Shown piece by piece: positions 17,843-21,189 of a stretch of DNA of 64,000 nt. Source of the DNA: Escherichia coli. Lineage in GTDB: Bacteria > Pseudomonadota > Gammaproteobacteria > Enterobacterales > Enterobacteriaceae. The notes beneath the pieces are model-generated. The model did no database searches. It was not told the origin of the DNA and saw only the letters and a list, made by a program, of their open reading frames with translations. The stretch lies in the NCBI RefSeq assembly GCF_003334335.1, contig NZ_QOWQ01000008.1; one strand, written 5' to 3'. A program made the translations under genes and the position numbers. Every line of letters begins with the position of its first letter. The first letter of the stretch is position 1.

Positions 17843-19078
<1,236 letters not shown>

Positions 19079-19148: not shown

Positions 19149-19712
19149 TCAGCGATGCAGGAAATTAGCCAGCAGTTGATGTCCTTGTTCGCTAAGAATA
19201 CTTTCTGGATGGAACTGCACACCTTCCAGATCCCACTGGCGATGGCGAATCCCCATAATCTCGCGGGTTTCGCTCCAGGCCGTCACGTCAAAGCACGCTG
19301 GTAATGAGTCAGGTTCCACCACCAGCGAATGGTAGCGTGTCACGGTAAGTGGATTTGCCAGCCCCCGAAATACGCCCTCACCGTTATGTGTAATCGGCGA
19401 GGTTTTGCCGTGCATGACCTTTGCGGCGCGCACAACTTTACCGCCAAATGCCTGCGCCATTGCCTGATGACCGAGGCAGACGCCAAGAATCGGCAAGCGC
19501 CCGGCATAGTGGCGAATAACGTCAAGGGAGATCCCGGCTTCATCTGGCGTACAGGGGCCAGGTGAGATGACAATTTTTTGTGGTTTAAGGGCGTCGATAT
19601 CCGCCAGCGTCAACGCATCGTTGCGCTTAACCAGCACATCCGCCCCCAGTTCACAAAAGTACTGGTAGAGGTTCCAGGTAAAAGAATCGTAGTTATCTAT
19701 AAGCAGGATCAT
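19149..19712 (-). CDS. pabA: Aminodeoxychorismate synthase, glutamine amidotransferase subunit
   Basis: 187-aa [26 protein letters not shown]...GVCLGHQ (class I GATase). Confidence 0.95.
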
Positions 19713-19743: not shown

Positions 19744-20346
19744 TTACTCAGATTCCCCGGCTTCGCTTACCACTTTGCTAAATATCATCTGCAGTGCGGT
19801 GAGATCCCCCATTGCCCCACTCTGATTTGCCTGATTCCAGGCCTCTTTTTCGATACCCTGCCAGCTCAGTTGATATCCGGCATGAATCGCCAGTTGCTCG
19901 AAGAAGATCCGCTGTGCCAGACCACTTCCCACCCGGAAGGGATGCAGCACGTTGATTTCACAATAGTAATGCGCCAGCCGCTCGACGAACTTCGCTTTCT
20001 CCAGGCCAACCAGATAACCTTCTTCCTCCAGATCCTGCATCAGGGCATTGCCCTCTTTTTCGATATAAGCAAAGTGGCAGAACGGCGTATCACCCTGATA
20101 AATATCAACTTCACGCAGTTGCCCTGCCCAGTCGAAAATATCCTGATACAGCTGGCGATGGATAGTTCGCAAATGCGGTAAACCGCGCACCAGCGGACCA
20201 AGCTCAATGGTCGCAGCACGCAGCGCCGTCATTTCGTAAGCGGCCTGTTCCAGCCGCTGCTGCTGGCGGATGTTCAGCCGGTTACGCATGATATCAAGGC
20301 CTGGATAAAGATACGGATCGCGCCCTTCGCCGAATTTATCGCTCAT
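19744..20346 (-). CDS. fic: Fic-domain protein (putative AMP-transferase)
   Basis: 200-aa [27 protein letters not shown]; motif region reads [12 protein letters not shown] (residues 135-146). Confidence 0.92.
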
Positions 20347-20503
20347 AGTGACTCCTCAGCTCTTCAAGGCGCGCTAAAGCCTCTGCGGCAGTAAGAGTGA
20401 CTAAAGGCATCTCGACGCCTTCAAGACGGCGACTGGCCTGAAAATTACGATTACGCTGAAGCTCCCAGAGACGGGACTTTTGCTTATCGGTGAGTTTCTT
20501 CAC
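20336..20503 (-). CDS. yhfG: Small Fic-partner protein YhfG
   Basis: Manual translation from GTG (complement cac 20501-20503): [54 protein letters not shown]; stop overlaps fic start; below the 60-aa ORF-track cutoff. Confidence 0.8.
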
Positions 20504-20607
20504 TTGATGCCTCCCTGAACGTGTCCATTTGCCACAAGTATAAGCGGCAAATCCGGGTTACGCCGGGAGAGCAGAAGCGCGGGCAAGATTGCCCGCGCGA
20601 GAAATCA

Positions 20608-21189
<582 letters not shown>

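Follow-up and report, generated by a model that had tools for sequence, protein, structure and literature searches.

The window, a 64,000-nucleotide stretch of contig NZ_QOWQ01000008.1 from Escherichia coli, carries on its minus strand the genes ppiA (20608-21180), yhfG (20336..20503), fic (19744..20346), pabA (19149-19712) and argD (17843-19063), with ppiA lying upstream of yhfG, pabA downstream of fic and argD downstream of pabA. The fic gene, which carries this name in RefSeq as well, encodes a class I FIC-domain protein of 200 residues followed by a stop codon (here EcFicT), and yhfG encodes a 55-residue homolog of the FicA-type antitoxins (EcFicA) that starts with GTG. The yhfG stop codon is located 11 nt inside fic, the two genes sharing the stretch ATGAGCGATAA (20336..20346, minus strand), and this 11-nt overlap implies translational coupling; the original prediction, made from the raw sequence, that fic is intact and overlapped by its partner yhfG was borne out by the 200-residue reading frame and the position of this stop codon. 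An Rfam scan of the whole window found no RNA elements.

E. coli Fic is the founding member and namesake of the FIC family, and the original prediction had missed that the gene in the window is this textbook E. coli fic. An 851-bp piece across the locus was 100% identical to E. coli chromosomes annotated with fic, yhfG and pabA in RefSeq, and a match to the locus was present in every one of the 5426 complete E. coli genomes that were searched, covering 80% or more of it in 5423 of them, with a chromosomal placement in 5428 of 5429 places. At the protein level, Fic was identical to chain A of PDB entries 5JFZ and 5JFF, barring R27H and a cloning change at residue 2, and YhfG matched chain B of the same entries. 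Fic also scored 430.3 bits against the NCBIfam equivalog NF007672 (cutoff 181) over residues 1-200 of 200, YhfG scored 126.9 bits against NF007573 (cutoff 77), and the Pfam Fic/DOC domain PF02661 was identified at residues 58-152 of Fic (E 1.5e-13). Matches of Fic to the VbhT-type model NF045983 (138.4 bits, cutoff 800) and the NmFic-type model NF046029 (65.9 bits, cutoff 230) were far below the NCBIfam cutoffs. Based on the 100% chromosome match, the match to 5JFF/5JFZ and the NCBIfam equivalogs of both proteins, this locus is almost certainly the E. coli fic-yhfG operon encoding EcFicT and EcFicA; with like certainty, judging from published assays (PMC5033356, PMC7479194), its Fic protein is incompetent for AMPylation.

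The arrangement is that of the class I (FicT/FicA) Fic systems, as a separate small protein with the motif [S/T]xxxE[G/N] is encoded upstream of Fic in the same operon. In YhfG this inhibition motif reads SRRLEG and covers residues 24-29 (20417..20434, minus strand). That the two proteins bind each other is indicated by their matches to the two chains of 5JFF/5JFZ, and the crystal structure has a salt bridge between YhfG Glu28 and Fic Arg146 (PMC5033356).

The FIC signature motif of EcFicT is found at residues 135-146 (19909..19944, minus strand). The canonical signature of an AMPylation-competent Fic protein is HxFx(D/E)GNGRxxR, which includes the acidic Mg2+ ligand, the Asn and both Arg residues, and the EcFicT motif fails it at three positions: the acid, usually D/E, is replaced by Val139 (19930-19932), the Asn by Ser141 (19924-19926) and the first arginine, R1, by Leu143 (19918-19920). 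The His (H135, 19942-19944), the Phe, both Gly residues and the last Arg (R146, 19909-19911) are retained. Minus-strand translation of the segment agreed with the original prediction on each of these points, both for the residues described as substituted and for those described as kept, and its coordinates and residue numbers were all right. EcFicT could be aligned without gaps to the CHARACTERISED AMPylases of solved structure, Fic-1 and VbhT, and opposite its motif these alignments placed the canonical sequences HPFREGNGRAQR of Pseudomonas Fic-1 (8WT0) and HPFREGNGRTLR of VbhT (3ZCB/3SHG), which made the three EcFicT substitutions evident. EcFicT has thus lost the acid that binds Mg2+, to V139, and the first arginine, a phosphate ligand, to L143. 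This degeneracy of the motif is the documented explanation for the difference in behaviour between EcFicT and its AMPylating relatives. A sequencing or translation error was considered and rejected, as the same motif is present in 5JFF/5JFZ, at all the Escherichia loci (VSL at three of the four, and ASL, that is V139A, in E. whittamii) and in thousands of genomes. The earlier reading of the raw sequence had picked out a real and functionally meaningful deviation of the active site.

This deviation had been reported before, its structural characterisation dating from 2016, and finding it again adds nothing new. The complex of EcFicT and EcFicA was solved, and its degenerate motif discussed, by Stanger, Harms, Dehio & Schirmer (PLoS One 2016, PMC5033356). 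In that study auto- and target-adenylylation by EcFicT were undetected, also when the inhibitory Glu motif of the antitoxin had been mutated, the original negative assays being those of Harms et al. (2015, Cell Reports) as cited in PMC5033356. The same study rated the change of R1 to Leu as the 'most relevant', together with the hydrophobic residue that replaces the Mg2+-binding acid, and took the Asn-to-Ser change, found in about half of the close homologues, to be probably neutral for the loop. It further reported that the motif changes co-vary with E36A, F67Y and Y71F to give a hydrophobic groove in the structure, that the EcFicT group has 43 subgroup-specific positions, and that its close homologues occur in Enterobacteriaceae only, at syntenic loci and by vertical inheritance; a new substrate for EcFicT was judged likely (PMC5033356). 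In the work of Lu et al. (2020, PMC7479194) Fic-1 alone among Fic proteins modified its cognate GyrB, and EcFic (b3361), which was included in the GyrB/ParE AMPylation assays, was absent from the active proteins, those acting on ParE among them. These negative assays (PMC5033356, PMC7479194) had thus already provided support for the statement of the original prediction that AMP transfer may be weak or altered. In the full-text papers searched, the newest from June 2026, we found none that assigns an activity to EcFicT, and neither toxicity nor activity of the protein is reported there; fic knock-outs grow like wild type (PMC5033356), and in June 2026 the mechanism of EcFicT was still called elusive (PMC13327609).

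To place the motif in its family we compared it with near and distant relatives. The canonical motif was absent from the nearest relatives, 120 clusters at the 90% identity level that were 79% or more identical: position 5 of the motif was L, I, V or F, position 7 was S or N (Cys once), and position 9 was L, M or I. An exhaustive HMMER search extended this to more distant relatives, each representing a cluster at 50% identity; 119 of these representatives had a complete motif, which was canonical (E/D, N, R) in 112, so that the EcFicT motif is not a chance deviation. The remaining seven distant representatives were mostly fragments from the enterobacterial clade. In the 73 full-length (200-aa) orthologues, residue 143 was hydrophobic in 65 and Arg in eight. 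Those with a hydrophobic residue had A36 (61/65) and Y67 (65/65), and those with Arg143 had E36 (8/8) and F67 (8/8), showing that the loss of Arg143 is coupled with E36A and F67Y. The 65 degenerate-motif orthologues shared 75 invariant positions, including N132, H135, P136, F137, R138, G140, G142, Q145 and R146 as well as T40, Y67, F71 and Y83. His135, Asn132, Gly140 and Gly142 (the Gly-Gly anion nest) and Arg146 were invariant in all 73. In YhfG, Ser24 was kept in 79 of 79 orthologues and Glu28 in 78 of 79.

With each GTDB species represented by one genome, a scan gave 80 loci, all of them with the gene order ppiA-yhfG-fic and, wherever the sequence sufficed, with pabA and argD next; the exception was locus L064, where neither pabA nor argD was found in ~3 kb of downstream sequence. 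The fic reading frames of the 80 species were intact (196-202 aa), 78 of the 80 loci had the same 11-nt yhfG-fic overlap, and the [S/T]xxxE[G/N] motif of YhfG was intact in 75 of 80, the commonest form being SRRLEG (63). Pairwise comparison with the window genes by the Nei-Gojobori method gave median dN/dS values of 0.093 for fic and 0.115 for yhfG, next to 0.070 for pabA, 0.053 for argD and 0.028 for ppiA, all of which are rough values since dS was saturated (~1.3-1.6). Purifying selection on both fic and yhfG is nevertheless clear, and its strength is close to that on pabA. These values (~0.09 for fic and 0.12 for yhfG) and the invariance of Fic H135 and R146 and of YhfG S24 lend support to the retained function that the original prediction had suggested. 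There were individual disruptions, e.g., an ISEc10 insertion within fic in one E. coli strain, and a nonsense codon in yhfG of the E. albertii type strain, in which fic is intact; the latter hints that free Fic is tolerated.

The module did not show the patchy, horizontal distribution of mobile type II toxin-antitoxin systems, its locus being syntenic in 80 of 80 species and present in all 5426 E. coli genomes. PADLOC matched Fic to the phage-defence candidate PDC-S04 (HMM PDLC04838, 250 bits, E 3.9e-75); the PDC families of PADLOC are candidates only, and the context here is a fixed housekeeping neighbourhood. This strict synteny speaks against a mobile toxin-antitoxin or defence island, the PADLOC match being to a candidate Fic family. 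EcFicT/EcFicA is a class I Fic module of the toxin-antitoxin type that has turned into a vertically inherited core operon of the Enterobacteriaceae, located between ppiA and pabA.

The order of the motif changes was examined on a tree of the neighbouring gene products (ArgD and PpiA proteins, aligned with MAFFT, with Edaphovirga as the outgroup), the crown of which was poorly resolved. Edaphovirga was the only one of the 80 species loci to have a fully canonical motif (HPFRDGNGRAQR, DNR). On the deepest branches (Shimwellia, two further Enterobacteriaceae and Franconibacter) the acid alone is lost, and nearly all members of the crown are without Arg143 as well as the acid. This suggests that the acid went before R1, whose loss was accompanied by E36A and F67Y; as Cedecea (L065, L069), which retains Arg143, was placed inside the poorly resolved crown, a single event or a clean order of losses is not established.

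With regard to expression, a fic promoter fragment has been described as 'strictly' dependent on E-sigma-38 (RpoS) (PMC3089606). The primers of that study map without mismatch at 20433-20451 and 20692-20709, and these positions of the fragment (20433..20709, minus strand) place the fic promoter either within the last part of ppiA or between ppiA and yhfG. Scanning the ppiA-yhfG spacer upstream of yhfG for the sigma-70 consensus gave no hit, in agreement with the published sigma-38 dependence. The hexamer TATACT at 20537-20542 on the minus strand is a plausible candidate for the -10 element, judging from the letters of the spacer. The gene adjoins pabA, a co-location that prompted the idea of a role in PABA/folate, and Komano et al. 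(1991) reportedly linked fic to PABA/folate synthesis; a full-text search found no accessible support for such a link.

Our preferred explanation, to which we assign a probability of roughly 0.55, is that EcFicT, encoded by a vertically inherited core fic-yhfG operon and incompetent for AMPylation, is still catalytic and acts on a new substrate. EcFicT would then be a neofunctionalised enzyme and not a relic, with catalysis still carried out by His135. Its substrate would contain phosphate but differ from ATP, and would bind in a pocket that may have been remodelled to be more hydrophobic. Access to this site would be gated by the salt bridge between YhfG Glu28 and Arg146, and the protein would be expressed mainly in stationary phase, via sigma-38. 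This is essentially the proposal made in PMC5033356. Judging from the wild-type growth of the knock-outs and from the strain with the ISEc10 insertion, the function is dispensable in the laboratory. Against the new-substrate explanation, the literature is without a substrate, product or target for EcFicT, the mechanism having been called elusive as late as June 2026 (PMC13327609); the conservation of His135 and Arg146 might serve folding or the binding of YhfG and not catalysis; and E36A and F67Y could merely fill the space of a lost Arg143-Glu36 salt bridge.

A rival explanation is a pseudoenzyme, i.e., an EcFicT that is non-catalytic and kept for binding or regulation, for instance through flap docking, with YhfG as its chaperone or competitor. 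Such a protein would account for the failure to find an activity since the first description of the gene in the early 1980s, for the loss of the two main phosphate and metal ligands and for the lack of a phenotype in the fic knock-out, and fic-1 (G55R) has a gain-of-function phenotype, with residue 55 located far from the active site (PMC5033356). However, we consider it unlikely that catalysis has been given up altogether: all 73 orthologues have kept His135, and with it the Gly-Gly nest, Arg146 and Asn132; the catalytic His is outside the PFxx(N/S)G fold core described for the FIC domains of Bartonella effectors (PMC8401265); and YhfG has retained its inhibitory Glu, which indicates that the active site is still worth blocking or completing.

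An alternative that gives this Glu a part in catalysis is that the EcFicT-YhfG complex could be a dedicated deAMPylase, or a related de-modifying hydrolase, that uses Fic His135 and YhfG Glu28. It might strip AMP from proteins like GyrB or ParE that a foreign canonical FicT toxin, or some other AMPylator, had modified, and EcFicT would be a natural separation-of-function variant in which only the forward (AMPylating) reaction has been lost. By analogy with the class I complex Fic-1-AntF (8WT0), which was itself found in 2026 to be a deAMPylase of AMP-GyrB (PMC13327609), this is conceivable, though we regard it as quite unlikely. In that complex the Fic-1 changes E139A and R143A each abolish AMPylation and leave the deAMPylase in place, and only Fic-1 H135A and AntF E28G cause a loss of deAMPylation (PMC13327609). 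EcFicT, which aligns with Fic-1 without gaps at 39% identity and shares its numbering, naturally has V139 and L143 with H135 and R146 intact, and both residues reported as essential for deAMPylation in PMC13327609, Fic H135 and YhfG E28, are present. Two published observations can be combined here: the deAMPylation of a homologous class I complex does not depend on the residues that are missing from EcFicT. The conservation of YhfG S24 (79/79) and E28 (78/79), with no AMPylation remaining to be inhibited, also fits a deAMPylase; that Glu28 has persisted in ~65 species in which it has no activity to block at least agrees with a catalytic role of this residue, and the conserved 11-nt overlap would suit an obligate complex.

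Other features of the Fic-1 complex argue against a deAMPylase. Its deAMPylation was ascribed to an acidic patch made up of Fic-1 E29, E36 and E139 with AntF E28 (PMC13327609), and EcFicT has Q29, A36 and V139 at these sites, so that only the Glu of the partner is kept; the E29/E36/E139 patch is thus absent from EcFicT, although Fic-1 E139A taken alone kept the activity (PMC13327609). The reaction also requires a divalent metal (PMC13327609), and EcFicT is without the acidic ligand of the motif. In addition, no cognate AMPylase is encoded at the fic locus, and the abundance of subgroup-specific residues on flap and surface points to another target (PMC5033356). Our literature search found no paper proposing or testing an eraser role for EcFicT. 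If it were true, the Enterobacteriaceae would possess a core complex, expressed under sigma-S, that removes AMP or a similar nucleotide modification from targets like GyrB or ParE, which could protect the cell against FicT toxins arriving by plasmids or secretion systems, and the founding Fic protein would gain a function after ~40 years.

We think it very improbable that EcFicT is a residual or conditional AMPylase that transfers AMP or another NMP under untried conditions (e.g., high temperature in the presence of cAMP, another metal, or release from YhfG) or to an untried target. Conservation extends to the adenine pocket and to the Asn before the motif, and the anion nest could still accommodate a diphosphate (PMC5033356); and as Fic-1 R146A still AMPylates (PMC13327609), single motif residues are not always essential. 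However, in Fic-1, the closest homologue to have been characterised, E139A and R143A each abolish AMPylation (PMC13327609), and EcFicT is without both residues; moreover, the assays of two laboratories were negative (PMC5033356, PMC7479194), and the clash that Y67 would have with Arg143 (PMC5033356) indicates that the EcFicT site has been rebuilt around the loss. Finally, while decaying toxin genes typically have degenerate catalytic motifs and one strain has an IS insertion in fic, we give next to no credence to a relic on its way to a pseudogene or to a sequencing artefact, as pseudogenisation is ruled out by a dN/dS of ~0.09, which shows that fic is not decaying, and by the intact, full-length and syntenic reading frames of 80 species, and identical sequence occurs in the crystal structures and thousands of genomes.

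Among known systems, the closest counterpart of the window's Fic and YhfG is the K-12 Fic/YhfG pair (5JFF, 5JFZ), which is the same protein and operon, with an identical motif, partner and overlap. The window represents an E. coli lineage other than K-12 and matches strain 300709 at 100% identity, and, the cloning change at residue 2 aside, its protein differs from the crystallised K-12 construct in having Arg where the latter has His at residue 27. More diverged is Pseudomonas bijieensis Fic-1/AntF (8WT0; PMC13327609), also a class I system with a small upstream inhibitor, in which the 39% identity to EcFicT extends over 196 residues. H135, positions 139 and 143, and R146 have the same numbers in Fic-1 and EcFicT, and AntF has S24 and E28, as does YhfG. 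However, Fic-1 has the canonical HPFREGNGRAQR motif and is a toxic protein that AMPylates GyrB at Tyr111, and deAMPylase activity has been proven for its complex; where Fic-1 has E29 and E36, EcFicT has Q29 and A36, in addition to V139, S141 and L143 in the motif.

The fold and the toxin-antitoxin architecture are also common to EcFicT and to VbhT/VbhA of Bartonella schoenbuchensis, YeFicT and PaFicT, the match to VbhT having a structural rmsd of 1.36 A (PMC5033356) and a PDB sequence match with an E-value of 6e-33. These three toxins have the canonical motif, AMPylate gyrase and topoisomerase IV and are mobile, whereas EcFicT is chromosomal, syntenic and vertically inherited. In the class II proteins FICD/HYPE and EfFic, which are both AMPylases and deAMPylases, the inhibitory Glu is needed for deAMPylation (PMC13327609), and YhfG keeps the equivalent Glu. 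Class II proteins have their inhibitory helix in the same chain and a canonical motif, while the inhibitor of EcFicT is the separate YhfG; metal binding by the acid of the motif is considered important in class II, and EcFicT has a Val at this position. For a change of chemistry the counterparts are AnkX, a phosphocholination enzyme, and Doc, a kinase. In AnkX, R1, a residue that EcFicT is without, still binds a phosphate of CDP-choline (PMC5033356); by their description in PMC5033356, AnkX and Doc provide a precedent for a motif change that goes with a change of substrate, and not with a loss of function.

Two loci carry an interrupted gene. In E. coli MS 21-1 (NZ_CP146670.1; L081:218–3236) an insertion of the IS21-family element ISEc10, with its istA and istB genes, splits fic and leaves yhfG intact. 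Coverage of the locus falls below 80% in only 3 of 5426 complete genomes, MS 21-1 among them; fic is therefore dispensable yet rarely lost. In Escherichia albertii NBRC 107761 (contig NZ_BBMY01000054.1) it is yhfG that is interrupted, codon 13 reading TGA in place of TGG (W13*; L004:2880–2882), and the downstream fic is an intact ORF of 200 residues with the VSL motif (V139, S141 and L143). Provided that this stop codon is genuine and does not stem from faulty assembly, the strain tolerates Fic in the absence of a functional "antitoxin", as would be expected of a non-toxic protein.

The inhibition motif of YhfG (SRRLEG, residues 24–29) also varied among relatives. In the three Trabulsiella loci (L038, L045 and L080) it reads SRRLER, Gly29 being replaced by Arg, and in Edaphovirga (L079), the sole species with a fully canonical Fic motif, it reads STALDG, with Asp in place of the inhibitory Glu28. 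The loci of Cedecea colo and Enterobacter sp. R1 (L065 and L069) keep Arg143 together with Glu36 and Phe67 (motif HPFRIGSGRAQR), and our neighbour-joining tree of the neighbouring ArgD and PpiA proteins placed both within the poorly resolved crown group, nearly all members of which lack Arg143; either the tree is wrong at this point, or Arg143 was lost repeatedly, or a loss was reversed. The Dryocola locus (L064), which is not among the 75 loci of the tree, has the same motif state. A further locus, L001 (NZ_JAATUR010000004.1), is labelled Escherichia coli SCPM-O-B-8794 and shares 92.8% nucleotide identity with the window over 6.4 kb (dS ~0.3–0.4), a divergence on par with that of E. whittamii (92.3%) and E. 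albertii (91.8%); it probably represents a cryptic Escherichia lineage, not E. coli proper.

Between the ppiA stop codon, which it follows closely, and the fic promoter region downstream lies a perfect GC-rich hairpin, GCGCGGGC-AATCTT-GCCCGCGC (20577–20598, minus strand). The hairpin lacks a T-run, and a terminator scan did not call it; it could be the ppiA terminator or a REP-like element. No family reached its gathering score in an Rfam scan of the window (1–64000).

The Fic protein (19744–20346, minus strand) is a strong match to the PADLOC phage-defence candidate family PDC-S04 (PDLC04838, 250 bits), although the matching gene is located in a fixed housekeeping neighbourhood. Three related predicted proteins are in-frame YhfG-Fic fusions: P0001 (252 residues) arose by a one-base deletion immediately ahead of the yhfG/fic overlap (…EELRVTMSDKF…), P0005 (233 residues) by an internal deletion, and in P0122 (200 residues; motif HPFFVGSGRAQR) an N-terminal part resembling YhfG (…FQASSRLD…) is linked to Fic at about residue 35. 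In architecture the three look like class II Fic proteins, but the majority derive from read-level assemblies and could be errors.
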